From the NCBI GenBank assembly GCA_028824415.1, contig JAPPDX010000106.1, forward strand, positions 52,357 to 116,356: DNA of 64,000 nt, given 5' to 3'. The notes beneath the pieces are model-generated. The model saw only the letters and a list, made by a program, of their open reading frames with translations, had not been told where the DNA came from and ran no database searches. Each line of letters begins with the position of its first letter. Position 1 is the stretch's first letter. The position numbers and the translations under genes are program-made. The DNA comes from a bacterium. GTDB lineage: Bacteria; Actinomycetota; Acidimicrobiia; Acidimicrobiales; CATQHL01. This document shows positions 9,761 through 45,183 of the stretch, one piece after another.

Positions 9761-9846
9761 AGCATCCTCCCGATTCCCGCGGCACGAGCCGCTTGTGTTT
9801 CTTCGGTGCCACCCGGTCGCCCACAGGCGGCCAAGGCATTCGTCAG

Positions 9847-9897
9847 GACTGATCTAAAGTTCAAGTTGAACTTGATATCAGTCTCTTGTATAAGAGA
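9847..9897. promoter_or_regulatory. AT-rich palindromes in the ftsQ-ftsZ intergenic region
   Basis: 9847..9883 is an imperfect 37-bp palindrome (gactgat-cta-aagttcaa g ttgaactt-gat-atcagtc) whose core 9857..9873 is a perfect 8-1-8. 9882..9897 reads tctctt-gtat-aagaga. This is the lowest-GC stretch seen in the window. Confidence 0.4.
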
Positions 9898-9901
9898 AAG
9901 T

Positions 9902-10693: not shown

Positions 10694-11655
10694 GATTGGC
10701 TCCCAAAGGGTCCGTCGAAGCCCACGAAATGGGTCTCGGGTCGGAGTCGGATACCGCTGTCTGCCTCGACGCGCCGCGCCACTTCCTCCATGAGCGCCAT
10801 CACATCCTCTGCCGAGCCTCCGGGATCGGCCTGGATGAAGTTGGCGTGCAGGCCGGACACCGCCGCAGAGCCGACTCGCAGGCCCTTGCAACCGGCCGCC
10901 TCCACGAGCCGCCCCGCCGAGTCGCCGGGCGGATTGGTGAAGACCGAGCCCGTGTTCGCTCCGCCGGGCTGGTGGCGGCGCCGCCAGGCCACGACCTGCC
11001 GGATGAGTTGCTCCTCATGCTCGCGGTCGCTGCGCCACAGAGATAACTCAACCTCAACTACAACGTGATGGCGCCGGAGAGCGGATTCCCGGTAACCGAG
11101 GGCCAGGTCCTCGAGTCCTGCCTGCCACTCCCGCCCGCTTGCAAGGTCCACGATTTCAGCGCGCTCCAGTACCTCACTCATGTCCGAGCCGTGTCCACCG
11201 GCGTTCATGCGCACTGCCCCGCCCACGCTCCCTGGAACGCCGACGGCCCAACCGAATCCACCCAACCCTGCGACCGCGCATTGACGCGCCACGACGGGCA
11301 GAGGAGTTGCACCACCTGCCACCACCGTCGCCCCCTCGATGCGTGTCGTGGCGAAGGCGGTGCCGAGCCGGAGTGCCACACCGTCGAATCCGGCATCGGC
11401 CACGAGAAGATTCGACCCGAGCCCGATCGCCAGGACCGCCCAACCCTCCTCTGCGACGGTACCTGCCAGCCGCCGGAGGTCTTCGAGGGACCCCACCTCG
11501 ATCAGAAGGCTCGCGGCACCCCCGACCCGGTAGGTGCTCAGCGCACCGAGTGGTGCTTCCAGCACGACCCGACTCTCGACGAGCTGTGCCGTGAGCAACG
11601 CCGCGACTCGGGACCAGTCCGTCGTGCCACTGATCGGACGGTCTGCGGTCATCAT
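10690..11655 (-). CDS. murB: UDP-N-acetylenolpyruvoylglucosamine reductase
   Basis: FAD-binding 'TYRVGGAASLL', 'GSNLLV' and C-terminal 'GSVFTNP'. Confidence 0.9.
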   Translation of the reverse strand: MMTADRPISGTTDWSRVAALLTAQLVESRVVLEAPLGALSTYRVGGAASLLIEVGSLEDLRRLAGTVAEEGWAVLAIGLGSNLLVADAGFDGVALRLGTAFATTRIEGATVVAGGATPLPVVARQCAVAGLGGFGWAVGVPGSVGGAVRMNAGGHGSDMSEVLERAEIVDLASGREWQAGLEDLALGYRESALRRHHVVVEVELSLWRSDREHEEQLIRQVVAWRRRHQPGGANTGSVFTNPPGDSAGRLVEAAGCKGLRVGSAAVSGLHANFIQADPGGSAEDVMALMEEVARRVEADSGIRLRPETHFVGFDGPFGSQS

Positions 11656-13061
11656 CCGACTGCACCGATCAATTCGTCCGGCAGAGTGGTGAGGTCACCC
11701 GCGTTGAGGGTCAGGCAAAGATCTCCCGGGCGGAGTTCATGCACCAGATACCGCTGCAGGTCGCGCCGGTGGGGGAACCACGCCACCCGCTTGAACGGTT
11801 CGGTCTCGAGCAGCGCGTCGACGAGCAGTTTCCCGCTGACGCCGGGACGAGGTGTCTCGCCGGCGGGGTAGACGTCGGTGAACACCACCAGGTCCGCTTC
11901 CGCGAACGCCGGAGCGAAGTCCCGCCAAAGAGCCGCCGTACGGGTGTAGCGATGCGGCTGGTAGACGCACACGATCCGCCGCCATCCCCCGGCACGGGCG
12001 GTCGCCAGTGCGGCGGCCACCTCTCCCGGCAGGTGTGCGTAGTCATCGACGAAGGTGACACCGGCGGCACTCCCCCTGAACTCATACCTCCGGGAGACTC
12101 CTCCGTAGTGCGCGAGGATCCCGGCACTGCAGGCCGGCGGAACACCGAGTTGCTCCGCGCACGCCATCGCCGCGGCCGCGTTTCGGGCATTGTGAAGTCC
12201 CGGCACCGGTAATTGCACGCGCGCGCGATCAGCACCGCGGCTGTCGAGAGTGAACTCGACGCCGGTCCGGGCGGTCGTCAGATCGACCAGCCGGTGGTCC
12301 GCGCCGGGGGCGGTCCCATAGGTCACCGTTCTCCCCTGCCTCGCCGCGAACCGTCTGCCCCACGGGTCGTCCGCGCAAACCAGCCGGAACCCTTCAACTC
12401 TTCCCAGGAATTGCTCGAAGGCCCGGTCCAGGCCTTCGACGTCGCCGTACCGCTCGAGGTGATCGGGCTCGACGCTGGTCACCACCGCTGCTTCCGGGTT
12501 GAGTTGGAGGAAGGTGGCGTCGCTCTCGTCGGCCTCGGCGACGAGCCATTCCCCGGTGCCCCACACCGCCCCGCTGCCGATCTCGTTGACATCGCCACCG
12601 ACGATGAACGAGGGGCGGAGACCGGCCTCGTCAAGAATCAGCGCCAGCATCGAGGATGTCGTCGTCTTGCCGTGCGTGCCAGCCACGGCGAGCGTTCGCC
12701 GCAACCGGCAGACCGCGGCCAGGATGTCGGCGCGGGAACAGACCGGGATGCCGGCACGCCGCGCCGCGGCGATCTCCACGTTGCCATCCCCGACCGCGCT
12801 CGATCGCGCCACGAGATCGGGCCGCCTGCCCGCCGGCACCTCGGCACCGGTGCTGGCAGGTTCGAGCACGTGTTCGACCCGGTGGCCCACGACCACGCCG
12901 AGACCGCGAGCCCGGAGCCGCTCGAAGGCGATCGACGCCTTCAGGTCCGAGCCCGTCACCAGATGCCCGGCGTCGGCAAGCACCGTGGCGATGGCGCTCA
13001 TCCCGGCGCCGCCCACACCCACCACATGAACGTGGTGCACCGCGTCGAGAGAGACGCTCAT
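11652..13061 (-). CDS. murC: UDP-N-acetylmuramate--L-alanine ligase
   Basis: 'VGVGGAGMSAIA' and 'GTHGKTTTSSM' Mur-ligase P-loop. Confidence 0.95.
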   Translation of the reverse strand: MSVSLDAVHHVHVVGVGGAGMSAIATVLADAGHLVTGSDLKASIAFERLRARGLGVVVGHRVEHVLEPASTGAEVPAGRRPDLVARSSAVGDGNVEIAAARRAGIPVCSRADILAAVCRLRRTLAVAGTHGKTTTSSMLALILDEAGLRPSFIVGGDVNEIGSGAVWGTGEWLVAEADESDATFLQLNPEAAVVTSVEPDHLERYGDVEGLDRAFEQFLGRVEGFRLVCADDPWGRRFAARQGRTVTYGTAPGADHRLVDLTTARTGVEFTLDSRGADRARVQLPVPGLHNARNAAAAMACAEQLGVPPACSAGILAHYGGVSRRYEFRGSAAGVTFVDDYAHLPGEVAAALATARAGGWRRIVCVYQPHRYTRTAALWRDFAPAFAEADLVVFTDVYPAGETPRPGVSGKLLVDALLETEPFKRVAWFPHRRDLQRYLVHELRPGDLCLTLNAGDLTTLPDELIGAVG

Positions 13062-14239
13062 GAGCCCGAGCCCTCACCGGCCGCCGCAATCATGAGCTCC
13101 GCCACCCGTCCGGCGGCTCCGGGCGCGCCGAGTCCTGCTGCAGCGGCCTGCATTCGCTGCAACCGCGGGGGGTCAGCGAGAAGGTCGGTGATCGTGGTCG
13201 CCAGGTGCGGACCATCCAACTCGGACTCGGGAATCACCACAGCCGCACCAGCGGCTACCAGGGCGGCCGCGTTGGCGACCTGGTGGTCATCGGTGGCACC
13301 GGGCATCGGCACCAGCACCGAGGCGCGTCCCGCGGCCGCCAGTTCGGCCAGGGCGCTGCCACCGGCACGGCTCACGACCAGGTCGGCGGCTGCCAGGGCC
13401 GCCGGCATGTCGTGCTCGTACGGCAGGCTCTCGTACTCGAGGCCCCGGTTGGCACTTCCCGCCGTCACTGCATCCCCAGAGCCTGCGGCGACGAACCCGA
13501 CGATGTGGCGCACTGCGATGTCGGCACGGTCGGCCAGCAGCCGGCGCACCGCCCCCACTGTCGCGTTGAGGCGGGCGGCGCCCTGAGAACCGCCGGCGAC
13601 CAACACCAGACGTCGATCTTCGGCGACACCGAGAGCGGCGCGGGCCCCGGCGCGCCCGGAGCCGGCTACGCCCGCAGGATCGCAATCCGGATGCAACCGG
13701 GCAATGGCGGCACGCACCGGTAGCCCGGTCCGCACCGCTCCTGCCAGCGGCGTGTCCGCGAAGGCCACCGCGCACGCCGCGGCCCAGCGGGCGGTCAAGC
13801 GGTTGGCGGCTCCCGGGGTGGCGTTGGCCTCGAGCACGACCACGGGGATTCGCCGCAGGCGAGCCGCCACCGCGGCGGCCGCGCTGACGTACCCGCCCTG
13901 TGCAAGTACCACGCGGGGCGAGGTACGTCCGAGGATCCGCCAGCACTGCCACACGCCGCGCGCCAGGGCGCAGACGGCACGGAGGTTCGCCGCCGTGAGG
14001 CGCCGGCCGAAGCCGCGTGCGCTGATCGCCGTGGCCGTGAATCCGGCCTTGGCCACGACCTCGGCGTCCAAGGGCCTTCCGCTGACGACGAAGTGAATCC
14101 TGTGGCGTCGTGTATCTCCGGTGGCTCCAAATTCGTCGGCCACCGCCAGCCCTGGATAGATGTGTCCCCCGGTCCCACCTCCCGCGATGACCGCCCAGGT
14201 ATCGCCGCACGGCGAGCCCGGATCGCTCGGGCCAATCAT
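13058..14239 (-). CDS. murG: undecaprenyldiphospho-muramoylpentapeptide beta-N-acetylglucosaminyltransferase
   Basis: C-terminal 393 codons of ORF 13058..16093. ATG 14239 (MIGPSD) overlaps the ftsW stop. 'GGGTGGHIYPGLAVA' G-loop. Confidence 0.95.
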   Translation of the reverse strand: MIGPSDPGSPCGDTWAVIAGGGTGGHIYPGLAVADEFGATGDTRRHRIHFVVSGRPLDAEVVAKAGFTATAISARGFGRRLTAANLRAVCALARGVWQCWRILGRTSPRVVLAQGGYVSAAAAVAARLRRIPVVVLEANATPGAANRLTARWAAACAVAFADTPLAGAVRTGLPVRAAIARLHPDCDPAGVAGSGRAGARAALGVAEDRRLVLVAGGSQGAARLNATVGAVRRLLADRADIAVRHIVGFVAAGSGDAVTAGSANRGLEYESLPYEHDMPAALAAADLVVSRAGGSALAELAAAGRASVLVPMPGATDDHQVANAAALVAAGAAVVIPESELDGPHLATTITDLLADPPRLQRMQAAAAGLGAPGAAGRVAELMIAAAGEGSGS

Positions 14240-15402
14240 GCGGTCCGCCCCTGGCGCGCCACGTTCAGGAGGATCCCGGCTGCCGCCAGATTCACGATCA
14301 GGCTCGAGCCTCCGTAGGAGACGAAGGGGAGGGTCACTCCCATGGTGGGGAGCAGGCTCTGCGCCACCGCGATGTTGGTGAAGGCCTGCAGCACGAACCA
14401 GCCGCTGATCCCCGCCGCCAGGAACGCACCGTAGGGATCGGGTGCGTCGCGCACGACGCGGACCCCCAGAACACCCAGGCACAGGAACAAGACAACGACG
14501 GCCAGGGCGCCGACGAATCCCAGGTTCTCGGCGATGGTCACGAAGATGAAGTCGGTGTGGGCATAGGGAACGTACGCCAGGTTGGCGCGCGCTCCTCCAG
14601 GCCCAACGCCCGTCAATCCCCCCGAGGCGATTCCCACTTGGGCCTGCAGAGCCTGGTAACCGGCGCCGTAGGGGTCCGACCAGGGGTCGAGGTAGGAAGT
14701 GAGGCGCTGGCGCCGGTAGCCGGACCCGAGCGCGAACAGGAAAGCCGTACCGGTCCCCAGCGCCACGAGCCCCGCCACGTGCCGGACCGGCAACCCTGCC
14801 ACGAACAACATCACGAGCAGGATGCCGCCGAGCAGCAGGACGGTGCCGAGGCTGGGCTGGGCCAGGATCAGCGCCGCAACCGCGCCGAACACCATCAGCA
14901 GGGGCAGGAGGGTCTCGCGGATCATCCACACACGGTCCAGCCGTCGGGACAGCAGCGACGCGGCAAACAGAACCAGAGCCAGCTTCGCCGCCTCCGAGGG
15001 CTGGATCACCAAGCCTCCGACTCGGATCCATCGCGCCGAACCGTTGCCGACCAGCACCAGCGGCGACGGCACCAGCAGGCAGGAGAGCGCGACGAGCGTC
15101 AGCAAGACCGCACCGGTGGTCAGAAGCGGCGCCCGCCAGCGGTGGTAGTCCACCCGGAGCGTCACGATGCCGGCGGCCAGGCCGAATGACAGCCAGAGAG
15201 CGTGTCGCTTGGCGTGGAAGAACGGATCGCCGGTGGTCTCGATCGACGTGACGGTCGCCGAAAGGAGCACCATCACGAGCCCCAGGAGACTCAAGAGCGC
15301 CAGAACCACGGCGAGGGCCGCGAACGTGCGGGTGTTGCGCCCCACCGGCGGACTCCGCAGCCCGCTCGCACGCTGCGGGCGCGCGGTCGTTGCAGAGGTC
15401 AT
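14236..15402 (-). CDS. ftsW: SEDS-family cell-division protein FtsW
   Basis: Polytopic membrane protein with 'IQPSEAAKLALVLFAA' and 'HTDFIF' SEDS motifs. Has the dcw position between murD and murG. Confidence 0.9.
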   Translation of the reverse strand: MTSATTARPQRASGLRSPPVGRNTRTFAALAVVLALLSLLGLVMVLLSATVTSIETTGDPFFHAKRHALWLSFGLAAGIVTLRVDYHRWRAPLLTTGAVLLTLVALSCLLVPSPLVLVGNGSARWIRVGGLVIQPSEAAKLALVLFAASLLSRRLDRVWMIRETLLPLLMVFGAVAALILAQPSLGTVLLLGGILLVMLFVAGLPVRHVAGLVALGTGTAFLFALGSGYRRQRLTSYLDPWSDPYGAGYQALQAQVGIASGGLTGVGPGGARANLAYVPYAHTDFIFVTIAENLGFVGALAVVVLFLCLGVLGVRVVRDAPDPYGAFLAAGISGWFVLQAFTNIAVAQSLLPTMGVTLPFVSYGGSSLIVNLAAAGILLNVARQGRTA

Positions 15403-16727
15403 CGCGGCTCTCCCATGCCGACGGTGGTCCGTACCAGAGCGGCAAAGTGCTCACCGCGGTGACGGTACGAGTCATACCAGTCGAAGGATGTGCAGCCTGG
15501 CGAAAGCACGATCGCCTCCCCCGGGAGCGCCAACTCGCCTGCGGTGAGCACAGCCCTTTCCATGTCCGTCGCCCGGTGCACCGGACGCGAGCCCCCGAAA
15601 GCACTGCAGACCTCACCGGCCGCCTCGCCAATGGCCACGACGGCTCGCACCGAGGCCGCGCCTGCGAGCCGCTGAAGGTCGAGGCCCTTGTTGCGGCCGC
15701 CGGCGATGAGCACCACCGACTTGAAGGCTCCGGTGGCAGCGAGCACCGCGTCGGGAGTCGTCGCCTTCGAGTCGTCGTACCAGAGATTCGTATCGGTCCG
15801 GGCCACCAGTTCCAGCCGGTGCGGGAGCCCGCGGAACGACTCGAGGGCGGCGCGCACATCCCCGGCGGGGGCACCGGCGGCCACGGCGCAGGCGGCGACG
15901 GCCTCGGCGTTGCGCAGGTCATGGGGGAACCGCCTCGGCAACCGCGCGATCTCGACGATCGGCTCACCGCAGAGCACGAGCGACCCGCCGGCCGCGGTCG
16001 CATCGCTGGCCGGCGTGCCGAAGGTGAGCTGGCTGCCCACCGGCCGCCGGGCCGCCACCACCGGGTCACCGTCGTTGAGGATCGCCACGTCATCGGCTCC
16101 CAGGTGGCGCCAGATCGCGGCCTTGGCCTCCTCGTAGGCCTTCACGGAGGCGTGCACGTCCAGATGGTCCGGCGAGAAGTTGAGCCAGGCCGCAACGCGT
16201 GGGCGGAACTCCCGGCTCCGACCCAGGCGGAACGATGACGCCTCGGCCACGAAGACCGCCGGGTCGGGGTCGTCGATGGCGCTCACGAGCGGCAGGTCGT
16301 TGTTGCCGGCGGCAACGGCCCCGGTGCTCGGACCCAGCGCCTCGGCCACCAGGGTCGTGACCGTCGTCTTCCCGTTCGTCCCGGTGACGGCCACGACCGG
16401 ACGATCGTCCCAGGCGGCCGCCAGATCGAACTCGCTGAGTATCACGATGCCCGCGCTGCGCGCGGCACGCATCGCCCGGTGACCGTCCGCCAGCCCCGGG
16501 GTGGGCAGGAAGGCGCCGCAGCGACTCAGCAGGACCGCCAGATCCTCATCCGACGGTGGCGGCTCCAGCACCCCACCCGCCTCGGCCACCGCCTGTTGCA
16601 CATCTGAGGCCGGCGCGTCGTCGACGGCGATGAACTCGCAGCCGCGCCGACCCAGCGCTGTCGCCACGGCTCGGTTCGTGGCACCCACGCCCCAGAGCAG
16701 GAACAGTCCATCGGTGGGGGTGATCAC
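15399..16727 (-). CDS. murD: UDP-N-acetylmuramoylalanine--D-glutamate ligase
   Basis: C-terminal 442 codons of ORF 15399..17426. GTG 16727 overlaps the mraY stop (GTGA). 'VAVTGTNGKTT' P-loop. Confidence 0.9.
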   Translation of the reverse strand: MITPTDGLFLLWGVGATNRAVATALGRRGCEFIAVDDAPASDVQQAVAEAGGVLEPPPSDEDLAVLLSRCGAFLPTPGLADGHRAMRAARSAGIVILSEFDLAAAWDDRPVVAVTGTNGKTTVTTLVAEALGPSTGAVAAGNNDLPLVSAIDDPDPAVFVAEASSFRLGRSREFRPRVAAWLNFSPDHLDVHASVKAYEEAKAAIWRHLGADDVAILNDGDPVVAARRPVGSQLTFGTPASDATAAGGSLVLCGEPIVEIARLPRRFPHDLRNAEAVAACAVAAGAPAGDVRAALESFRGLPHRLELVARTDTNLWYDDSKATTPDAVLAATGAFKSVVLIAGGRNKGLDLQRLAGAASVRAVVAIGEAAGEVCSAFGGSRPVHRATDMERAVLTAGELALPGEAIVLSPGCTSFDWYDSYRHRGEHFAALVRTTVGMGEPR

Positions 16728-17782
16728 GATGACCCCTCGGCCGCGGATCTCGACTCGAGCAGCGGGAAATAGTCGGCGTAGAACAGACCCAGAGCCACCG
16801 CGGTGGCGAAACCGGCGAGCAGCCAGAACCGGACGATGACCCACGTCTCGTGCCAGCCGCGCTCCTCGAAGTGATGGTGCAGCGGCGCCATCGCGAACAG
16901 GCGCCGCCCTCCCATCGACTTGAACACCCCGATCTGCAGGATCACCGAGAGGCACTCCATCACGAACAGGGCGGCCATGATCGGCAGCAGCAGGTGGGTG
17001 TTGGTCGTGAGCGCCAGGCAGGCCAGAGCGGTCCCGATGGCCAGCGATCCGGCGTCGCCCATGATGATCTGCGCCGGTGCCGCGTTCCACCACAGGAACC
17101 CGACACAGCCACCCAGCATCGCCGCCCCGACGACTGCCAGGTCCAGGGCATGGGGCAGGTCGTACAGGTCCGCGTGCCGGAACGCCCAGTACCCGATGAT
17201 GGTGAAGGCGGCGAAGTTGAAGATGCTCGATCCCGCTGCCAACCCGTCCAAGCCGTCGGTGAAGTTGACCGCGTTGGACGCTCCCACGATGATCAGCACC
17301 GCCCAGAGGCTCCAGCCCACCGGGCCCATGTCCCAGCCGATGCCGCCCGAGCGAGTGAACGACAGCTCGGTGCTGACGTCGGTCGCCAGGACGGTCAACG
17401 AGGCGAATCCACCGCCCACGGCACACAGCCCCAGCATCTTGGCCCGCTTGCTGAGTCCCAGGCTGTGGGCACGAGACACCTTCAGCCAGTCATCCACCGC
17501 TCCCACGGCGGTCGCCCCCAGGATCGCCAGCATCACGAGCAGCCCTGTGCGGGTGAAGATGCCCCCGTGGATGAAGTCGCTTCCGGCGTAGCCGGCGCAG
17601 GCGCCCCCGACGATGGCCAGACCACCCATCGTCGGGGTTCCCTGCTTGTGCGCGTGGCTCTCGGGGCCGTCACTGCGGATGGGTTGAGCAAGGTTCCGTG
17701 ACCGGAAGAACGCGATCAGCAGGCGCGTCCCGGCCAGGGAAGCGACGGTCGCGATAGCAGCGGCGAGCAGGAGCCGGATCAC
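16724..17782 (-). CDS. mraY: phospho-N-acetylmuramoyl-pentapeptide transferase
   Basis: Ten-TM profile with 'VDDWLKV' and 'NAVNFTDGLDGLA' motifs. Confidence 0.95.
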   Translation of the reverse strand: MIRLLLAAAIATVASLAGTRLLIAFFRSRNLAQPIRSDGPESHAHKQGTPTMGGLAIVGGACAGYAGSDFIHGGIFTRTGLLVMLAILGATAVGAVDDWLKVSRAHSLGLSKRAKMLGLCAVGGGFASLTVLATDVSTELSFTRSGGIGWDMGPVGWSLWAVLIIVGASNAVNFTDGLDGLAAGSSIFNFAAFTIIGYWAFRHADLYDLPHALDLAVVGAAMLGGCVGFLWWNAAPAQIIMGDAGSLAIGTALACLALTTNTHLLLPIMAALFVMECLSVILQIGVFKSMGGRRLFAMAPLHHHFEERGWHETWVIVRFWLLAGFATAVALGLFYADYFPLLESRSAAEGSS

Positions 17783-19215
17783 GGTGCCGGCACCTCCGCT
17801 GCCGTCCTTAGCAGCTCCCGCACCACCGCGGCATCATCGAAGGGGAGCGACCGCCCGCCGATGATCTGCTGCGTCTCGTGCCCCTTGCCGGCCACGATCA
17901 CGACATCACCCGGGCTCACGCCCGCCAGCGCGGCCGCGATTGCAAGCCGGCGATCCAATTCCACCTCCGCGGTCCCGGCCCCGAGGCCGGCCATGATCGC
18001 CCGGGCGATGCGGGCCGGATCCTCGCCCCGCGGATTGTCAGATGTAATGACGACCCTGTCGGCAAGGCGGGAGGCGATGTCTCCCATCGCCTCCCGCTTG
18101 CCTTCATCCCGCTCGCCGCCGCAGCCGAACACCACGGTCAGACGAGATTGCGCGGGCACCAGGTTCCGTCCCGCGCGCAGCAGCTGCTCCAATGCCGCCG
18201 GAGAATGAGCGAAATCAACGATTACCACCGCCGGTGACCCGGTCACCACCTCGAACCGGCCACGCAGCGGCGGCATCCGCTGGAGACCTTCTGCGATCTC
18301 GGCCGATCCGACACCGAGGGAGTCGGCCACGGTGGCCGCCACCACCGCGTTGGCGATGTTGTGCGCGCCTCCAAGGGGCAGCACGATCTCGAGCCGGCGC
18401 CAGCGGATTCGGCTGTAGTCCGCGGCCGAATCCAGCACCTCGGCGTCGGCTCGCGAGCAGCGCCGCACCTCGCCGGCAACCTCACCGGCCAGGCGCCGAC
18501 CCCAATGATCGTCGGTGCAGACGACTGAGACGGCGCTTCTCGCGTCCTCGAACAGAGTGCGTTTCGCTCGGTAGTAGTCCTCCATGTCCCGGTGGTAGTC
18601 GAGGTGCTCCGCAGAGAGGTTCGTAAAGGCCGCAGCGGCGAATCGCAGCCCTTCGACGCGCTTCTGGGAGAGTCCGTGCGAACTGACCTCCAGCGCGGCG
18701 ACGCGTGCGCCGGCTGCCCGCGCCGCCCCGAGCCGGCAAGCCAATTCGGTGGCCCTGGGGGTGGTGAGAGGCCCACTCAGGGTGCCGATCGCGACGCAGT
18801 GCCGGTCGGCCGCCTCCAGGATGCTGCTCAGCAGGTGGGTGACGGTGGTCTTGCCGTTGGTGCCCGTCACGCCGGCGAGTTCCAGGTGCTCCTGGGGCGA
18901 TCCCGCCGCGGCCAGCGCCAGGGGACCGACCGCGGCTCGCGCCTCGGGCACCACCAGTTGCGCCACCGCCACGGGAAGAGGACGCTCGACCACCAATGCC
19001 GCTGCGCCCGCCGCTACCGCCTGTTCGGCGAAGTCGTGGCCGTCGACGGATCGCCCCGGGACGCAGCAGAAGAGGGCCCCTGGCTGTACCTCGCGGGAGT
19101 CCTCGCAGACCGCGCTGATCGCGGGGTCCTCCGATCCGGGGCCGGCCGGGAGGTGCAGCCGGCCGCCGACCCCGCTGCGCCGCCGCAACGACCGGAGGGT
19201 CACCGGCTCACCCAC
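17779..19215 (-). CDS. murE: UDP-N-acetylmuramoyl-L-alanyl-D-glutamate--2,6-diaminopimelate ligase
   Basis: 'GVTGTNGKTT', 'DFAHSPAALEQ', 'GCGGERDEGKR' and 'DNPRGEDP' are MurE-type motifs, not MurF-type. Confidence 0.9.
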   Translation of the reverse strand: MGEPVTLRSLRRRSGVGGRLHLPAGPGSEDPAISAVCEDSREVQPGALFCCVPGRSVDGHDFAEQAVAAGAAALVVERPLPVAVAQLVVPEARAAVGPLALAAAGSPQEHLELAGVTGTNGKTTVTHLLSSILEAADRHCVAIGTLSGPLTTPRATELACRLGAARAAGARVAALEVSSHGLSQKRVEGLRFAAAAFTNLSAEHLDYHRDMEDYYRAKRTLFEDARSAVSVVCTDDHWGRRLAGEVAGEVRRCSRADAEVLDSAADYSRIRWRRLEIVLPLGGAHNIANAVVAATVADSLGVGSAEIAEGLQRMPPLRGRFEVVTGSPAVVIVDFAHSPAALEQLLRAGRNLVPAQSRLTVVFGCGGERDEGKREAMGDIASRLADRVVITSDNPRGEDPARIARAIMAGLGAGTAEVELDRRLAIAAALAGVSPGDVVIVAGKGHETQQIIGGRSLPFDDAAVVRELLRTAAEVPAP

Positions 19216-21004
19216 GAGGATCTCCCCCCGTAACCGCCGCCAGGATCAGTTCATTCCCGCCGGCGGCCGGCGGCGGAATTTTGAGACGGCGGACGGCGAT
19301 CTGGGCCAACTCGGCGAATGCGGGCGCGGCCGCGCTCCCGCCGAAGATGGTGGCCGTGGGCTCGTCGATCACGACGATCAGGGAGAGTTCGGGATCCGAT
19401 GCCGGGAGGAAGCCCACGAACGTGGCGACATAGCTGTAGTTCCCGGCCGCGTCGGCGTAACCGCCGCCGGGGCGCGGCTTGCGGGCGGTGCCGGTCTTCC
19501 CCGCAACCTCGTAACCCTCGACCGCGGCCCGCCGGCCGGTCCCGCTCTCCACGACCTCGCCCAGGATCCGGCGCATGTGAATCGCCGCCGTGCTGGAGAC
19601 GACTCGCCGCGGTTCGATAACGGGATCCGGGCTCGTGACGGCGCCCTCGGGGCCGGTCACGTCCGCCACGATCCGCGCCGGGACGTAGACACCGTCGTTG
19701 GCGATGGTGTTGAAGGCCTGGAGGAGTTGCAGCGCCGTCAGTGAGACACCCTGGCCGATCGAGATGGTCGCCAGCGAGGTTCCCGACCAGTTCGTCACGG
19801 TCGGCAGGAGCCCCGCGGACTCCCCGTACAGCCCGAGCCCGCTGCGGGCTCCGAGCCCGAAGCGGCGCAGGTAGTTGTCGAGTCCCGTCGCACCGAGTCG
19901 CTCGCCCCAAAGGATCGTCCCGATGTTCGACGACTCCACGACGATGTCCCGAACCGAGTAGTCGAGGACCGGGTGCGGCGTGTAGTCCGTGAATTCCGAA
20001 TCGTGCACCACCAGGCGGTCGGGGACCGCGCTGGTCGTGGCCGGAGTGGCCAGCCCGGCGTCCAGCACGGCGGAGAAGGTGAGACCCTTGATCGCCGATC
20101 CGGGCTCGAACGCCCAGGTGACGGCTTTGTTCTCAGCACCCGTGACCACCTCCCCGGACTCGTCGCGGGTTGCGGTGGACATGGCCAGGATCTCGCCGGT
20201 TGCCGGGCGGGCGAGAATGATCACCCCGCCGGCCGCGTCGGTCTCGCGCACCTGGTCCGCCAGGATCCGGGCAGCCTCGAACTGCAACAACCCGTCGACG
20301 GTGAGCCGCAGGTCGGCGCCGTCGACGGCGAGGACCGACTCGCTGACGCCCCCGGGAACGCTGCGGCCTCCCGGATACATCTCGCGGACCTCCGAACCGT
20401 CCCTGGCGGCCAGTACGTCGTCGTGAAGCAGTTCGATGCCGGAGATGCCCTTGTGGTCGGTGCTCACTGAGCCAACGATCTCCACGGCGAAGTCGCCCAG
20501 CGGGTACTCGCGACGGAGTTCGGGCACTGTGCCGACGCCTGCCAGATCCAGTTCCCGCACCGCCGTGGCCTGTTCGGGAGACACCTGGTGTTGCAGGTAG
20601 ACGAACCGGCCCGGCACCGACATCTTCTGGGCGAGGGGCTCTGCCTCGGCACCGAGAATCGGGGCCAGCGCGCTTGCCACGGCGAACGGGTTGTCGATCA
20701 TCAAGGGATCCGCGTAGACCGCCGACCACTCCACCGACGTCGCCAGCGGCTCCCCCGAACGGTCCAGGATGTCTCCTCGCACGCCCATCACGGCGCTCTC
20801 CTGAAGGCGATGATCCCTGGCCCACTCCAGGATTCGCTCGTCCTCGCGGAACTGGAGCTCGAAGGTCCTGGAGACGAGCGTGCCGGCCATCGCCAGCATC
20901 GCCAGCACGAGGACGGCCCGCCGGCCACCGGAGCGGTAACCCCGCGGCCCGGCGCCGCCCACGCCTCCTGCGACGTGTGACCGGCCACGAGTGGTCCTGC
21001 TCAC
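19208..21004 (-). CDS. ftsI: class B penicillin-binding protein / septal transpeptidase FtsI
   Basis: N-terminal TM helix, PBP dimerisation domain, and transpeptidase motifs 'SAIK' (SxxK), 'SSN' and 'KTGTA'. Confidence 0.9.
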   Translation of the reverse strand: MSRTTRGRSHVAGGVGGAGPRGYRSGGRRAVLVLAMLAMAGTLVSRTFELQFREDERILEWARDHRLQESAVMGVRGDILDRSGEPLATSVEWSAVYADPLMIDNPFAVASALAPILGAEAEPLAQKMSVPGRFVYLQHQVSPEQATAVRELDLAGVGTVPELRREYPLGDFAVEIVGSVSTDHKGISGIELLHDDVLAARDGSEVREMYPGGRSVPGGVSESVLAVDGADLRLTVDGLLQFEAARILADQVRETDAAGGVIILARPATGEILAMSTATRDESGEVVTGAENKAVTWAFEPGSAIKGLTFSAVLDAGLATPATTSAVPDRLVVHDSEFTDYTPHPVLDYSVRDIVVESSNIGTILWGERLGATGLDNYLRRFGLGARSGLGLYGESAGLLPTVTNWSGTSLATISIGQGVSLTALQLLQAFNTIANDGVYVPARIVADVTGPEGAVTSPDPVIEPRRVVSSTAAIHMRRILGEVVESGTGRRAAVEGYEVAGKTGTARKPRPGGGYADAAGNYSYVATFVGFLPASDPELSLIVVIDEPTATIFGGSAAAPAFAELAQIAVRRLKIPPPAAGGNELILAAVTGGDPRG

Positions 21005-21372
21005 GGGGCCGGAGGGGTGGCCGGGTCCAGGAAGTTGACCGTCGCCGGCGGCACCATTCCGAGTCGGTCGCGAGCCTCGGTGGCCAAGCGTGCCGGTGAG
21101 AGCAGTTCGGCGCGCCGGAGGCGCAGCTCACGGTCCAGGCTGACCGCGTCGTCGATCTGCCGGTCCAGTTGATCTATGCGCCCCTGAGCCTGCGTGACCA
21201 CGGCCTGGAGGACACCGATCGCGAACAAGCCGCTGAGCAGAACGACCACCACGCGCAGGACGATGCGGCGAAGGTGGTTCGACTTAGGCCGCTCGCTTCC
21301 CACGACCCGGAGCCGCGATTGTGCCTCGACCTGCGGGGTCGGCGCCTCGGGGGTTCGCAACGGTCTGCTCAT
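21001..21372 (-). CDS. ftsL: FtsL-like septum formation protein
   Basis: 123 aa with a basic N-terminus, one TM helix and a short coiled coil. Conserved slot between rsmH and ftsI, with 4-nt overlaps on both sides. Confidence 0.6.
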   Translation of the reverse strand: MSRPLRTPEAPTPQVEAQSRLRVVGSERPKSNHLRRIVLRVVVVLLSGLFAIGVLQAVVTQAQGRIDQLDRQIDDAVSLDRELRLRRAELLSPARLATEARDRLGMVPPATVNFLDPATPPAP

Positions 21373-22319
21373 GCCGCGACCGCCGGGAGCTTTTCGAAGG
21401 AGCGCAGCCGGGCGCTGGCGGCGCGAGGGTTGCGGCGGGTCTCCGCCGCGCCGGGCCGGGCCGCGCCGCGGGACAGCAGCCGGACGCTGCCGACGGCGCC
21501 ACAGACGCAGGGAAGCCGAGGCGGGCAGCTACAGCCACCTGAGGCGGCCACCGCCAGGGTGTCCTTCACGAGGCGGTCCTCCCCGGAGTGGTAGCTGAGC
21601 ACCACTCCCCTGCCGCGAGGCACCAGATGATCGATAGCCTGCGTGAGAGCCGGGGCGATCTGGGTAAGTTCCTCATTGACCGCGATCCGCAGCGCCTGGA
21701 AGCTGCGCTTCGCCGGATGCCCGCCGCGACGGCGGTGGCGGGCCGGGATGGCGGCGCGCACGACCTCGGCCAACTCGACGGTGTCGCGCAGGGGGCGGTG
21801 AGACACGATGGCCCGGGCGATCCGGTGAGCACTGGGTTCGTCCCCGTACTCCCTCAGCAGACTCCTCAGGCGCTCGGCCGGCCACTCATTGACGATCTGC
21901 GCGGCAGAGAGTTCCGCTCCAGGATCCATGCGCATGTCGATCGGACCGGCGGCCCGGTAGCTGAACCCCCGATCGGGGGTATCGAGTTGCATCGAACTGA
22001 CCCCGAGATCGAAGACCACCCCCGAGAGGGCGCCGATCCCCAACTCGGCGAGCGTCGCGCCCAGGTCGGCAAACCTGCACCGGTGCAGCCGGACCCGGCC
22101 CGGGAGACGCCGGGCGGCAGTGGCCAGCGCCGAGGGGTCCCGATCCAGCCCGACGAAACTCAGATCGGGGCGGTGCGCCAGCATGGCCGCGGTGTGACCG
22201 CCGGCTCCGACCGTGGCATCGAGCAGAACCCCCGCCGGGATCGGCTTCAGGACCTCGGTGACCTCACGGACCATGACGGGGTTGTGCCCTCCGTTGCGGA
22301 GGTCCTCATCGATGCTCAT
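21369..22319 (-). CDS. rsmH: 16S rRNA (cytosine1402-N4)-methyltransferase
   Basis: 'HNPVMVREV', 'DATVGAGGH', 'FDLGVSSMQLD' and 'SYHSGEDR' motifs. Confidence 0.95.
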   Translation of the reverse strand: MSIDEDLRNGGHNPVMVREVTEVLKPIPAGVLLDATVGAGGHTAAMLAHRPDLSFVGLDRDPSALATAARRLPGRVRLHRCRFADLGATLAELGIGALSGVVFDLGVSSMQLDTPDRGFSYRAAGPIDMRMDPGAELSAAQIVNEWPAERLRSLLREYGDEPSAHRIARAIVSHRPLRDTVELAEVVRAAIPARHRRRGGHPAKRSFQALRIAVNEELTQIAPALTQAIDHLVPRGRGVVLSYHSGEDRLVKDTLAVAASGGCSCPPRLPCVCGAVGSVRLLSRGAARPGAAETRRNPRAASARLRSFEKLPAVAA

Positions 22320-41537: not shown

Positions 41538-44500
41538 TCAGGCAACGAGCCCCGAGACCCCCACCGAGGGCGTCAGACCCAGCCGGGCTTGACGCCGCTG
41601 CTCGTAGAGGCCGAGCGCGTGGAGAGGGAAGTACTGCCGATACAGGCCGTAGTCCAGCACGGCCGTGCGGAAGAACACGCCGGCTCCGTCCTGGCGGGGC
41701 CATTCCCCGTTGGCGTCCAGGGTGTCCAGCAGGAATCGAGCCCCCTTGGCAATCGACGCCCAATCCGAGTCGCCCGCCTCTAGGAGGGCAAGCATCGCCC
41801 ACGCGGTCTGGATGACCTGACTCGACTCGTGCTCGACGTATCGACCGGTCAGGCAGCCGCTGTGGTGCTCGCCCCATCCCCCATCCTGGTGCTGGCGATC
41901 CAGCAGCCACCGAGCGGCCCGGCGCAGCGCCGGATCACCGGGGCGGGCTCCGGCAGCATGCAGACCTCTGATTCCGAAGAGGGTGCCGTAGATGAACTGA
42001 ACACCCCAGGAGCCGCGCCACGACCCGTCGGACTCCTGGGATCGGCGGAGCCAGGTCTCAGCCCGTGAGATTGCACTCATCACCTCCGGATCCGTAAGTT
42101 CCGGGTGCTGCTCCCGCCAAGCAGCCAGTGCGGCGACGCAGGAAGCAGTGCACTCGACATAGGAGCGCTCGGTCATCGACTCGCCGAACATCTCGGCCGG
42201 GTTCAGCCACTCGAGTCCAATCGCAGAGCGCTGCGCCTCGTAGCTGCCGAAACCGCCGTCGCGGTTCTGGCCGCGCAACATGAATCGAACCGCGTCGTCC
42301 AGCGCCGCCGTACTCGTGGCGTCACCGTCGGCGGCGATCAGTCCGAGCAGCGCTTCCGCGGTGCAATCGGTCACCGGCCAACCGTGCCACTTCCCGGCGA
42401 GGCACCAGCCGCCCTTGGGGTCGGACCGGTGCGCGTCGCCGAATCCTTCGAAACTGGCATCGATCTGTTGCCGGCGCACGAAATCGGCTCCGCCTCCCAG
42501 TGCGGCTGCAACGCCGTCGAATTCTCCCACCGTCGCCAGGGCCTGCAGAGAGAACCCCGTGTCCCACAAGGCGCTTCTCGCTCCGACGACGCGTGTTCCA
42601 CCCTCGGCGTCCTCCCAGATCCAGCCGTCCAGCTGCGCGAAAGCCTGTCGGCAGTCGGCATCGGTCGGATCCCGCAGCCACAGGGCAAGGATGTTGAGGA
42701 GCCCGCTGACCGGAGAGATGCTTCGATGGCTGGTGGTGCGCAGTTCCCATCTGATGTGGCGGATCAACTCCTCGGTACATCGGGCGCGCCGTCCCTTGCC
42801 TCCGAACCGTTCGTACAGGCGGGCGAACCGGTAGCCGGCTCGGAGCAACACGCTGGGCCGGGCGAAGAGGTCGGCGTCCCGCAGGCGATTGCGGCCCGCG
42901 GAGAACCTGACATTGGCGAACCCCTGGGGGAACAACTCCTCCCGCACAGCGGCGATCACGGGCGTGACGGGGGCTCGGTGCCGGAGCGGATAGATCACTG
43001 CCATCGCCATGTAGATCAGCCGGGTGTGGCAGTACCACTTCGAGGGATGCAACGCCGTCCAGCGCGGCAGGCTCCACAGATCCGGCAGGACGGCGTTGAC
43101 CCCGCGCCAGTCGTAGAGGCCGACGAGCGCCAGCCAGAACTTCCCCCAACTCGGGATGCCGAGCACCCCCTCGGTCTGCAGGAACCGCCGGGCCGGCTCG
43201 AGTAGCGGATCATCCGGCTCGACGCCGAGCAATCGCGCCGCCACGTAGACCAGGGTTGTGACGAACAGGTGGGGTGGCGAGTGCTCGTGCAGACCCCACA
43301 GCCCCCCATCGAGGCGCGATTGCTCGAAGTAGCGCAACACGGCGCGACGTCGGTCCGCATCGAGCGGACGTCCCACAATGTGGTGCAGCAGCACGTATTG
43401 CGCGGTGAGCATGGGACACCACGCAACCTCACCCTCCCAGGCACCGTCGGAACCCTGGAGACTCACCAGGCGCGTGCTCGCACTTCTGAGCGCCGGGCCG
43501 GCATCGGGTGAAGCAACCTCTCTCGGGGGACTGGGGAGAGCCCCTGCCCTCGCCGGCATGGAGATGAGAAAGGCACGGGCCAGGGTCTCGCGAGCCCGCT
43601 GATCCTTCTCCCCACCGGCGTTCCGCGCCCTGCGCAACTGCCGGACTCCACGGAAGGCCAACCCGAGGCGGGTAACGAGCGCCGGCACGACTTCGCTGGT
43701 CCGGCGCCAGGCGGACTGGTCGCAGGACCTCGGAATCTCGCCGACGATCGTCCGGGTCGCCATCGCGCCGCACGCCAGACTCAGGCTTGCTATCGAGATG
43801 TCCTCACAGGCGAGCAAGCCAACGGTCCGATTGCGGACCCCCGGACTCGCCCGCCAACGCCGGTAGATCGTGTGCCTGAGCGCGACGGATTCAACCCGAT
43901 GATCCGCGAATACCTCGTACAACCCCATGGCGAGGAGCTCAGGCGCACGGGTCGCCTGGAGCCGCCTCTTGGTGAAGTCGCGGAAGTCCTTCCCCTCGGC
44001 CAGTGTCAGCGCATCGCCGAAACCGAGGGTCATCCCCACCGCCGTCAGCGGGTGGTAGTGACCTGCGGCATCCCCGATGAGGACTCGCCGGGGGCTCCCG
44101 TATGTGGCGCGCGGCCTCAGCGCATTGGCCGCGGCGAGAAATCTGCGCGCCCGCAGCGCTTCGAGGAACGCAGGCCTGAGCGTCTCCGGCATCCAGCCTG
44201 CATAGGAGTCCGACATCACGGCAACCAGATCCCGCGATGAGTACCCCAGCGGGACATCCACAATCACCCGGACGGCATCCTCGCCCAGGCGATATATGAG
44301 AATCGGCCCCGGTCCGCCGCAAACCACGTGCCCATAACCTTCCAGCGGCAGGCTCACGCCACTCAGTTCGATCCCCATCATCCGCGAGCAGTTGCTCGGG
44401 CTCGTCCAGAGACCCAGTGAACGACGCACGATCGACGCCCGCCCGTCGGCACCAACGATCAGCGCGGCCCGCAACGACTCATCGACGCCGTTGCGGGAGA

Positions 44501-44918
44501 ACGTGACAGAGTGGTCCTCGACCGCCCGCACACGCGCGTGAAGCATGAAGTCGATTCCCGGCTCGTCCCCGACAGCTTCACGCAGACGCGAGACGAGCGC
44601 CTCGTGCTCGCATACCAAGCCGTGAGATCCCTCCGGATACCGAAGCACGATCGGCTCCGACCGGTCTTCGGGAAACACGGCGAATCCCTTTCCCGTGGCG
44701 CTCCGTCGCTGGGAATCGATCTCTATCCCGAGATCTTCGAGCATGCGCAGGGCGGGGGGATGCAACCACTCGCCTGCGAGTCTCTTGGAGACATTCGGGT
44801 TGGCCTCGAGGAGAGCCACCGAGGCACCTCGACGCGCGTGAGCGAGCGCACACAGGCTGCCGACAGGACCCGCTCCGACGATGGCGACGTCGTAGCCCCG
44901 GGCAGCGGCTCCGCTCAT
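41538..44918 (-). CDS. fusion protein: squalene-monooxygenase-like FAD flavoprotein (about 43482..44918) + oxidosqualene-cyclase-type triterpene cyclase (about 41541..43481)
   Basis: Single uninterrupted 1126-aa ORF. N-terminal part: 'YDVAIVGAGPVGS', 'GEWLHPPA', 'GADGRASIVRR', 'GDAAGHYHPLTAVGMTLGFGD'. C-terminal part: QW repeats ('RAETWLRRSQESDGSWRGSW', 'RAARWLLDRQHQDGGWGE'), 'HPSKWYCHTRLIYMAMAVIY', 'LNPAEMFGESMTERSYVECTAS' and catalytic 'GWPVTDCTAEAL'. Confidence 0.85.
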   Translation of the reverse strand: MSGAAARGYDVAIVGAGPVGSLCALAHARRGASVALLEANPNVSKRLAGEWLHPPALRMLEDLGIEIDSQRRSATGKGFAVFPEDRSEPIVLRYPEGSHGLVCEHEALVSRLREAVGDEPGIDFMLHARVRAVEDHSVTFSRNGVDESLRAALIVGADGRASIVRRSLGLWTSPSNCSRMMGIELSGVSLPLEGYGHVVCGGPGPILIYRLGEDAVRVIVDVPLGYSSRDLVAVMSDSYAGWMPETLRPAFLEALRARRFLAAANALRPRATYGSPRRVLIGDAAGHYHPLTAVGMTLGFGDALTLAEGKDFRDFTKRRLQATRAPELLAMGLYEVFADHRVESVALRHTIYRRWRASPGVRNRTVGLLACEDISIASLSLACGAMATRTIVGEIPRSCDQSAWRRTSEVVPALVTRLGLAFRGVRQLRRARNAGGEKDQRARETLARAFLISMPARAGALPSPPREVASPDAGPALRSASTRLVSLQGSDGAWEGEVAWCPMLTAQYVLLHHIVGRPLDADRRRAVLRYFEQSRLDGGLWGLHEHSPPHLFVTTLVYVAARLLGVEPDDPLLEPARRFLQTEGVLGIPSWGKFWLALVGLYDWRGVNAVLPDLWSLPRWTALHPSKWYCHTRLIYMAMAVIYPLRHRAPVTPVIAAVREELFPQGFANVRFSAGRNRLRDADLFARPSVLLRAGYRFARLYERFGGKGRRARCTEELIRHIRWELRTTSHRSISPVSGLLNILALWLRDPTDADCRQAFAQLDGWIWEDAEGGTRVVGARSALWDTGFSLQALATVGEFDGVAAALGGGADFVRRQQIDASFEGFGDAHRSDPKGGWCLAGKWHGWPVTDCTAEALLGLIAADGDATSTAALDDAVRFMLRGQNRDGGFGSYEAQRSAIGLEWLNPAEMFGESMTERSYVECTASCVAALAAWREQHPELTDPEVMSAISRAETWLRRSQESDGSWRGSWGVQFIYGTLFGIRGLHAAGARPGDPALRRAARWLLDRQHQDGGWGEHHSGCLTGRYVEHESSQVIQTAWAMLALLEAGDSDWASIAKGARFLLDTLDANGEWPRQDGAGVFFRTAVLDYGLYRQYFPLHALGLYEQRRQARLGLTPSVGVSGLVA

Positions 44919-45150
44919 CGGAACCTGCTCGCCTGCGAGCAGCGCCGGCAGCCGAGCCGGCGTGAGGTGTCCGCACCGGCCATCCGGCTACCGTAGTTCG
45001 GAGCACGAAGGCGCTCATCGGCCGGAGCCAAACTCCTGGCTGGCCCCTCCCGACACCTGCCGGAGGCTCGACCAATTTCCCGAGGCCCGGTTGCGGTCCG
45101 GCGCGCCGCCGATCCCGGCGAGCCGCGCCGCTGGGCTGAATCGACGCGGT

Positions 45151-45171
45151 GGAGCGATCGTCGATCGCTCC
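45151..45171 (-). terminator. hairpin 13 nt downstream of the trpD stop
   Basis: ggagcgatc-gtc-gatcgctcc (9-bp stem, 3-nt loop). No U-tract, so it is only a candidate terminator. Confidence 0.35.
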
Positions 45172-45183
45172 TCGACCCGGGAT

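Follow-up and report, generated by a model that had tools for sequence, protein, structure and literature searches.

A squalene epoxidase-oxidosqualene cyclase fusion gene in a core-genome setting of the Acidimicrobiales, predicted to encode a bifunctional sterol enzyme

The closest described relatives of the gene presented here come from the sterol gene clusters studied by Brown et al. (2023; Nat Commun 14:1859, PMC10070321), who trimmed 'fused SMO/OSC homologs' for a tree and did not study the fusion itself, and whose Supplementary Data 1 gives one gene ID for both ERG1 and ERG7 in a cluster from an Aplysina aerophoba metagenome (the fused gene in the published cluster is JGIcombinedJ30088_1000083512). 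The same authors placed oxidosqualene cyclases (OSCs) from sponge metagenomes in the all-bacterial Group 1, and showed that SMTs from fusion-type sterol clusters are active. Acidimicrobiia are among the 11 classes with ERG24-CYP51-LSS clusters predicted in Ircinia symbionts (Kelly et al. 2022). Here we describe a gene in which a squalene epoxidase (SE) is joined to an OSC in a single polypeptide, located on a 64,000-nt stretch of an Acidimicrobiales genome (contig JAPPDX010000106.1 of assembly GCA_028824415.1, positions 52,357 to 116,356; the whole stretch is called the window, and positions are counted within it). An earlier reading of this DNA, made from the letters only (the sequence-only reading), had recognised the fusion, and had taken both the fusion and sterol-type cyclisation in actinobacteria to be undescribed. 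Neither claim of novelty holds: the fusion is present in at least 120 database clusters at the 90% identity level and in at least 47 GTDB species representatives, was noted by Brown et al. (2023), and is already common in the databases, while Kelly et al. (2022) predicted sterol gene clusters for sponge-associated Acidimicrobiia. The window gene is one more member of a widespread, already noticed and poorly annotated SE-OSC family, in an unusual context.

We consider it probable that this gene encodes a bifunctional enzyme acting at the membrane surface, which would lead from squalene to lanosterol through the two O2-dependent entry steps of sterol synthesis. As the sequence-only reading had described, the gene is a single uninterrupted open reading frame (ORF) of 1126 aa on the minus strand, with an ATG start and no internal stop, and all eight peptide motifs quoted there were found (at residues 9, 49, 156, 282, 624, 846, 905 and 970). 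The product has an identical database entry, P0001, which derives from a metagenome-assembled genome (MAG) and carries the NCBI name 'FAD-dependent monooxygenase [bacterium]', and an identical fused gene was called as a single gene on a 96.5-kb scaffold of a sponge study in ENA (ROBB21-1_SAMN13943212_METAG-scaffold_240). Profile searches found the domains of both enzymes, with FAD_binding_3 (PF01494) at residues 9-307, SE (PF08491; EC 1.14.14.17 family) at residues 151-315 (75.4 bits vs a cut-off of 20.1), SQHop_cyclase_N at residues 478-771 and SQHop_cyclase_C at residues 782-1106 (E-values of the two cyclase domains 1e-50 to 1e-52); these matches are far beyond chance. The coordinates of the modules and motifs are given in Table 1.

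The C-terminal half has the architecture of beta-gamma alpha/alpha toroids with QW repeats, of which the fused protein contains five of the canonical type, and it is an OSC-type rather than a squalene-hopene cyclase (SHC)-type enzyme, as had been concluded from its DCTAE motif. The best model by a wide margin was TIGR03463 (osq_cycl, OSC; EC 5.4.99.7-8), matched over model positions 2-633 of 634 with 713.5 bits, which is under the curated cut-off of 851. The model for the squalene/oxidosqualene cyclase superfamily (TIGR01787) was passed with 496 bits vs a cut-off of 322.7, whereas the hopene cyclase model (TIGR01507) was failed with 265.4 bits vs 431.1. Of the solved structures, human lanosterol synthase (1w6k) ranked first, matching residues 479-1109 with an E-value of 9e-129, vs 1e-47 for SHC, and human OSC was also the top match overall with Foldseek (TM-score 0.73, 34% identity). 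For the comparison of individual residues we aligned 120 close fused relatives, seven distant fused representatives and 69 unfused OSC representatives with human OSC. D851, C852 and C923 correspond to human D455, C456 and C533 and are invariant in 120/120 close relatives; DCTAE is the catalytic acid block, as proposed. The deprotonating pair H232/Y503 of human OSC is retained as H631/Y893, as are the cation-stabilising residues W387, W581, F696 and Y704 (W785, W971, F1082 and Y1090 in the window protein), and also Y977 and W591; each of these retained residues recurs in 119 or all of the 120 close relatives. Two other cyclase types were considered and rejected. Against an SHC-type cyclase, the window protein has VTDCTAE and no DxDD, and its TIGR01507 score is under the cut-off. 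Against an arborinol-type cyclase, the substitutions 230S, 232Y, 521V and 697Y (human OSC numbering), which reportedly suffice for bacterial arborinol-type (eudoraenol/isoarborinol) products (PMC12414744), are all absent, with Y629, H631, F911 and F1083 in the window protein.

The product predicted for this cyclase is lanosterol. V849, which corresponds to human V453, is Val in 120/120 close relatives, and in the bacteria tested by Wei et al. (2016) V453 fully tracked lanosterol and I453 cycloartenol, with position 453 being the only predictive one. At human positions 381/449/453 the window protein has A780/H845/V849, compared with T/C or Q/V for lanosterol and Y/H/I for cycloartenol, and with A780 and H845 beside V849 the eukaryotic three-residue rule gives a mixed outcome. 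The cation-stabilising aromatic residue F444 of human OSC is Phe in 112/120 relatives and is polymorphic (F/L) within the Acidimicrobiales clade, the Leu of the window protein (L840) recurring in 4/10 Acidimicrobiales orthologues and the other six having Phe; L840 could shift the product profile. A bifunctional enzyme with a product other than lanosterol, i.e. cycloartenol, parkeol, another protosteryl-derived triterpenol or one of the arborane type, would agree with H845 (eukaryotic cycloartenol synthases have H at position 449), with A780, which matches neither the T associated with lanosterol nor the Y associated with cycloartenol, with L840, and with the departures from human OSC at Y98 (V/M), W230 (Y) and N697 (F). 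We nevertheless regard it as rather unlikely, as V453 is fully correlated with lanosterol in the tested bacteria and invariant in the fused family, H232 is kept and none of the four arborinol substitutions is present, the V/M98, Y230 and F697 states are common among the unfused bacterial OSC representatives, and relatives of the fused gene lie in clusters with CYP51, ERG24 and sdmAB, whose products act on substrates of the lanosterol type.

The N-terminal half is composed of an FAD Rossmann fold, a substrate domain and a C-terminal helical region, and its description as a squalene-epoxidase flavoprotein is supported by the Pfam match, by the best solved relative and by structural superposition. 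Human SQLE (6c6n) was matched with an E-value of 1e-24, vs 1e-10 for the next flavoprotein (PqsL), and in a Foldseek search of the PDB the SE module aligned with the human SQLE catalytic construct over 451 columns (TM-score 0.78, target-normalised; 24% identity). Because this alignment covers the entire SQLE construct, residues 1 to about 450 represent a complete SE, including the C-terminal helical region. Conserved in this half are GxGxxG, E38, R46, G49-E50, D158, G282-D283, H289-P290 and G295. The ribose-binding E38 and D158-G159 align with E153 and D285 of human SQLE and are invariant or nearly so among relatives, and the block GDAAGHYHPLTAVG aligns with human G407-D408...H414-P415...G420, with G282, D283, H289, P290 and G295 invariant. 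The Tyr195/Gln168 pair of human SQLE is replaced in the window protein, with F79 for Y195 and H53 for Q168. All fused proteins have the same states, and so do 31-32 of the 33 SE-type representatives from bacteria that stand alone, which makes them a signature of the bacterial branch rather than a defect; they look like residues which separate bacterial from eukaryotic members of the family without excluding function. It is very unlikely that the flavoprotein is another FAD monooxygenase or an inactive scaffold, with the OSC fed by oxidosqualene made elsewhere. Such a protein would fit the replacement of Y195 and Q168, a Pfam SE match which spans only model positions 2-170 of 276, and NCBIfam matches to UbiH-type models, every one of which is under its cut-off, but SQLE is by far the best solved relative and its whole structure superposes, the FAD and GD/HP motifs are invariant, the ratio of nonsynonymous to synonymous substitutions (dN/dS, omega) of this module is 0.11-0.19, and F79/H53 are common to stand-alone bacterial homologues. 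Brown et al. moreover list such a gene as the ERG1 homologue of the cluster, with no other SE listed there, and in relatives with separate genes the same SE sits immediately upstream of the OSC.

No convincing transmembrane helix was found in the fused protein by Kyte-Doolittle analysis. The most hydrophobic 19-residue stretch (residues 366-384, mean 1.51) falls short of the usual transmembrane value; it is the hydrophobic segment which the sequence-only reading had placed after the flavoprotein part, and lies inside the C-terminal helical region of the SE. Both the SE and the OSC family bind membranes monotopically or peripherally, and the profile of the fused protein fits membrane association of this kind. 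The Pro/Ala/Arg linker described in the sequence-only reading coincides with a stretch predicted to be disordered: in a full-length AlphaFold2 model built on 56 homologues (mean pLDDT 72.6, pTM 0.49) the pLDDT is <50 at residues 458-473, and no secondary structure is predicted at residues 450-473.

The fused frame is conserved. Ten orthologues from Acidimicrobiia/Acidimicrobiales are 79-85% identical and keep it, and in 11 Acidimicrobiales genomes, which are independent assemblies and include complete chromosomes such as OZ242194.1, OY760933.1 and CAXXMX010000010.1, it is uninterrupted and in a trpD/queG-like context throughout, with one single one-codon in-frame indel, in the linker, among the 11 orthologues. 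When compared with the window copy, the ten syntenic Acidimicrobiales orthologues gave dN/dS values of 0.11-0.19 for the SE, 0.16-0.28 for the linker and 0.18-0.27 for the OSC; the linker changes more quickly (dN about 0.14-0.25) than the two modules do, yet is constrained. The worry about a frameshift or assembly join raised in the sequence-only reading is answered by this frame conservation in 10 orthologues together with purifying selection (dN/dS 0.11-0.28), which exclude an assembly join, a frameshift and a pseudogene. It is scarcely credible that the uninterrupted frame is artificial, produced by an assembly join, a frameshift or the loss of a stop codon, or that the gene is a decaying relic, not working for want of sterol-cluster partners: close relatives do encode the two enzymes separately (in Thermoanaerobaculia, in Longimicrobiales and in one Dehalococcoidia genome), the fused gene is an orphan in the window lineage and its GC content at third codon positions (GC3) is lower than that of neighbours pre-selected for high GC3, but 11 Acidimicrobiales genomes have the same intact frame in the same context, omega stays near 0.2 throughout the gene, linker included, and the catalytic residues are all intact.

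In the mechanism we propose, the SE module would use FAD, O2 and an external electron donor to convert membrane squalene to (3S)-2,3-oxidosqualene, and the OSC module would take the epoxide from the same membrane face. D851, polarised by C852 and C923, would protonate the epoxide, and a chair-boat-chair cascade would then give the protosteryl cation, followed by hydride and methyl shifts and by deprotonation via H631/Y893 to what is most likely lanosterol, as suggested by V849. Human SQLE receives its electrons from cytochrome P450 reductase, and domain assignment gave no reductase domain in the fused protein. Possible benefits of the fusion are a fixed 1:1 stoichiometry, co-localisation at the membrane, passage of the epoxide over a short distance, and joint inheritance or transfer of the two modules; with a flexible linker of about 23 residues and no confident interface (pTM 0.49), the benefits proposed are those of proximity and not those of a rigid tunnel. 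As the gene stands alone in a housekeeping neighbourhood, it would require only a supply of squalene, from elsewhere in the genome or from outside.

Several observations weigh against a bifunctional squalene-to-lanosterol enzyme. The cyclase half is under the curated cut-off of TIGR03463. With H845 in the eukaryotic cycloartenol state, the lanosterol call rests mainly on V849, and there are second-shell differences from human OSC (Y98 to V498, W230 to Y629, T381 to A780, C449 to H845, N697 to F1083 and F444 to L840). The AlphaFold2 model is only moderate, and the packing of the domains is not reliably given by it. Homologues of squalene synthase, CYP51, ERG24, sdmAB and SMT were not found with tblastn in the 64-kb window, nor were these genes present on the 5.7 kb past its right end. 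Finally, we found no paper naming, analysing or assaying a natural SE-OSC fusion, in a literature coverage which is thin for subscription journals.

Table 1. Positions in the window of the fused gene, its modules and motifs, and its upstream region (residue numbers refer to the fused protein)
Feature	Position	Strand	Basis or remark
Whole SE-OSC fused gene	41538..44918	(-)	1126 codons + stop; ATG start; ORF list
SE module, residues 1-450	43569..44918	(-)	Pfam, human SQLE 6c6n match, Foldseek
GxGxxG dinucleotide-binding motif, G15/G17/G20	44859..44876	(-)	Aligned with human SQLE G130/G132/G135; invariant in relatives
GD...HP...G block, residues 282-295, GDAAGHYHPLTAVG	44034..44075	(-)	Second FAD/substrate signature of SE
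Inter-domain linker, residues 451-473, Pro/Ala/Arg-rich	43500..43568	(-)	AlphaFold2 disorder prediction
OSC module, residues 474-1112	41583..43499	(-)	Pfam, TIGR03463, 1w6k, Foldseek
Catalytic acid block DCTAE, D851-C852-T853-A854-E855	42354..42368	(-)	Aligned with human D455, C456
V849, product-type position (human V453)	42372..42374	(-)	Alignment
L840 (human OSC F444 position)	42399..42401	(-)	Alignment
Upstream intergenic region, 265 bp	44919..45183	(-)	Read from sequence

The core-genome setting described by the sequence-only reading is real for the window lineage. In the window and in 10/10 Acidimicrobiales orthologues the gene lies between trpD and a Fer4_16 (queG-like) gene, which is followed by GT4, ROK, aminotransferase and PFK genes, and housekeeping genes are found throughout the window. 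A dcw cluster at 8675-22319 (ftsZ, a murC-type ligase gene, ftsW, mraY, a murF-type ligase gene, a PBP transpeptidase gene and mraW), flanked by divIVA and ileS, is canonical and confirms the window as core chromosome; the window also holds recO, uppS, era, ybeY and phoH, as well as dnaG, a sigma-70 gene, dinB, a transglutaminase gene and a class II aminoacyl-tRNA synthetase gene. The sterol-cluster genes sdmAB, ERG24, CYP51 and SMT are absent from the 10 syntenic Acidimicrobiales loci, and this core-genome setting is the one feature which distinguishes the window copy from most of its relatives. The fused gene has a GC content of 0.673 and a GC3 of 0.79, compared with a GC3 of 0.85 +/- 0.02 for 40 other genes of the window, which is a weak hint of foreign origin as these 40 genes were pre-selected at GC3 >= 0.80. 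Upstream of the gene there is a perfect palindrome with a 10-bp stem at 45151..45171 (GGAGCGATCG-A-CGATCGCTCC), 13 nt past the stop of trpD and some 230 nt ahead of the ATG of the fused gene, which lacks a T-tract and may be a terminator or an operator, and the ATG is preceded by a purine-rich stretch (GCAGG) as a candidate ribosome-binding site (RBS). A sequence scan around the fused gene found neither a sigma-70 consensus promoter nor an intrinsic terminator with a T-tract.

Outside the Acidimicrobiales, 30-50 loci have sdmB, sdmA, ERG24 and CYP51 directly before the fusion, often with SMT and squalene-synthase genes after it. The relatives in such a context are 56-75% identical to the window protein, and the clustering of these genes suggests a sterol function for the fusion through guilt by association. 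The cluster of a 75%-identical relative (L082:300-23390) comprises genes for an RND transporter, a fatty-acid-hydroxylase-family protein, a KshA-type Rieske protein, ERG24, CYP51, three SMTs, sdmA, sdmB, an amine oxidase and a second P450. With the CYP51 of this cluster as query, the matches listed were all >=79% identical, and Acidimicrobiales chromosomes were not among the matches listed. The gene order sdmB-sdmA-ERG24-CYP51-[SE-OSC] is conserved in loci L009-L060, at about 5.2-10.0 kb of each locus. The encoded proteins are 61-85% identical between loci with different phylum labels, suggesting that the sterol cluster has spread horizontally. A conserved protein of 243 aa without a Pfam match is encoded just past the fusion in 13 loci (e.g. 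L082:13414-14145).

The fused protein family is spread over several phyla of uncultured bacteria, mostly in sponge microbiomes. At least 119 fused clusters are 68-86% identical to the window protein over about 100% of its length. The best 120 database clusters at the 90% identity level all have a length of 1091-1181 aa, 93-100% query coverage, 67-100% identity and both sets of domains, and the contigs encoding fused relatives include some of 2-7 Mb. Among GTDB species, each represented by one genome, at least 47 representatives carry the fusion as a single ORF, and these according to the NCBI labels of the submitters belong to Acidimicrobiia, Alphaproteobacteria (Paracoccaceae), Dehalococcoidia/Chloroflexota, Gammaproteobacteria (Arenicellales, Pseudomonadales, Ca. 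Poriferihabitans and Azotimanducaceae), bins called Nitrospira and Nitrospinaceae, and Myxococcota (Sandaracinaceae and Polyangiaceae). Many of the fusion-bearing bins are from sponge metagenomes, with the SB06xx series including sponge-associated Entoporibacteria. Fused records are annotated as 'FAD-dependent monooxygenase', 'hypothetical protein' or 'squalene--hopene cyclase' (P0001, P0003, P0004, P0008, P0022, P0096 and P0120), with the consequence that surveys relying on annotation will overlook the sterol capacity of these genomes or assign it wrongly.

SE and OSC genes that are neighbours but not joined were found in seven Thermoanaerobaculia/Acidobacteriota genomes (L037, L039, L040, L047, L059, L060 and L061), in one Dehalococcoidia genome (L046) and in one of the Longimicrobiales (L028). 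In these split relatives the SE is immediately upstream of the OSC, which is 64-74% identical to that of the window, and the boundary between the genes is at the position of the linker in the fusion, taking the form of overlapping frames, a GTGA stop/start overlap, a GGAGG RBS 13 nt past the SE stop codon, or a single in-frame stop. The presence of fused and split forms among near relatives indicates that this state is labile and has changed more than once. In neighbour-joining distance trees of each half, built without support values, the 'sponge-type' sequences, whether fused or split, fall into a single clade, with the fused clade of Sandaracinaceae/Polyangiaceae as sister; both clades are nested within unfused bacterial OSCs, including two from Myxococcota MAGs, while human OSC and representatives of eukaryotic length fall outside this grouping. 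The window protein is within the fused clade in the trees of both halves. These trees group the same lineages, with the Acidimicrobiales clade beside sequences labelled Nitrospira and Nitrospinaceae in both, which is consistent with the two halves having travelled together across phyla and evolving as one unit.

Two further types of fusion were observed among these genomes and databases. A SE-SQS fusion of about 1150 aa occurs in Sandaracinaceae and related Myxococcota MAGs beside the SE-OSC fusion (representatives P0192, P0231 and P0211), either directly after it (L041:13484-16993, L048:13477-16977 and L052:12973-16995) or about 1.1-1.2 kb downstream, past an ERG24 homologue (L042:14703-18161 and L049:12107-15547). 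It consists of an SE-type N-terminus, a degenerate cyclase-like stretch in the middle (with a partial SQHop_cyclase_C match in P0211), and a C-terminal squalene/phytoene synthase domain (Pfam SQS_PSY, 1e-44 to 1e-47), and no description of it was found in the literature searched. Protein P0208 (1022 aa) has SQS_PSY at residues 29-327 followed by a full cyclase (SQHop_cyclase_N and _C, residues 388-1020), and by its domain content fuses a squalene synthase to a cyclase, so that early triterpenoid steps are joined in a third way.

It is possible, and we put it forward tentatively, that the Acidimicrobiales fusion is a self-contained squalene-to-protosterol cassette, which was horizontally acquired as a unit, became fixed in the core genome, and makes unmodified lanosterol. 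If so, only a source of squalene such as hpnCDE would be needed, with CYP51, ERG24 and sdmAB uninvolved, and the lanosterol would be either a membrane lipid of the organism itself or an intermediate for a host or for neighbouring symbionts with tailoring genes. A study of Acidimicrobiia of the order UBA5794 found hpnCDE restricted to a sponge-associated group and proposed that squalene is exported to the host; neither sterols nor cyclases are mentioned in its text. The covalent link would enable transfer of the entry chemistry of sterol synthesis between phyla in one step, and, seen alongside the SE-SQS and SQS-OSC fusions, would suggest that physical coupling of the squalene, oxidosqualene and cyclase steps has been selected for repeatedly. 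Bacterial sterol synthesis is relevant to the reading of sterane biomarkers and on the origin of eukaryotic sterols, and sponge symbionts are central to the debate on 24-isopropylcholestane. A one-polypeptide SE-OSC would also be a compact part for lanosterol engineering in bacteria, where separate SE and OSC enzymes are troublesome: the OSC of Methylococcus capsulatus (LSSMc) was poorly soluble in a study of lanosterol production in E. coli, and needed a NusA tag (PMC12146001). The fusion would likewise be a clean system for probing direct hand-over of oxidosqualene between two enzymes. With the novelty of the fusion gone, the remaining value of the locus lies in its orphan placement in the core genome, in its putative bifunctionality and channelling, and in the related fusions.

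With regard to known systems, the fused SMO/OSC proteins of sponge symbionts and Sandaracinus (Brown et al. 2023) are the same SE-then-OSC polypeptide, of about 1120-1170 aa and with the same catalytic residues, with fused relatives being 56-86% identical to the window protein in sponge-type lineages and 43-47% identical in Sandaracinaceae/Polyangiaceae. The fusions of Brown et al. are found inside sterol clusters (sdmB-sdmA-ERG24-CYP51-fusion plus SMTs), whereas the window copy is isolated, with trpD/queG-like flanks. The stand-alone Group 1 bacterial OSCs (Wei et al. 2016; Myxococcota MAG proteins P0130, P0131 and P0141) are 45-52% identical to the OSC half and share with it DCTAE and the H232, Y503, V453 and Y230/F697 states, but have a length of 640-690 aa without a flavoprotein domain, the SE being a separate gene in cultured sterol producers. 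Human lanosterol synthase (1W6K) and SQLE (6C6N) share the catalytic Asp/Cys/His/Tyr residues and the FAD motifs with the window protein; they are separate proteins of the endoplasmic reticulum rather than one polypeptide, and differ from it at Y98, W230, T381 and C449 of human OSC (V, Y, A and H) and at Y195 and Q168 of SQLE (F and H). SHC (2SQC) has the beta-gamma alpha/alpha-toroid fold and QW repeats in common with the OSC half, but uses a DxDD acid and unoxidised squalene, whereas the window protein has DCTAE. Another natural fusion in bacterial sterol synthesis is the CYP51-ferredoxin of Methylococcus capsulatus (Lamb et al. 2021; PMC7947880), in which an enzyme is joined to its redox partner, whereas the fusion in the window joins two consecutive enzymes of the pathway.

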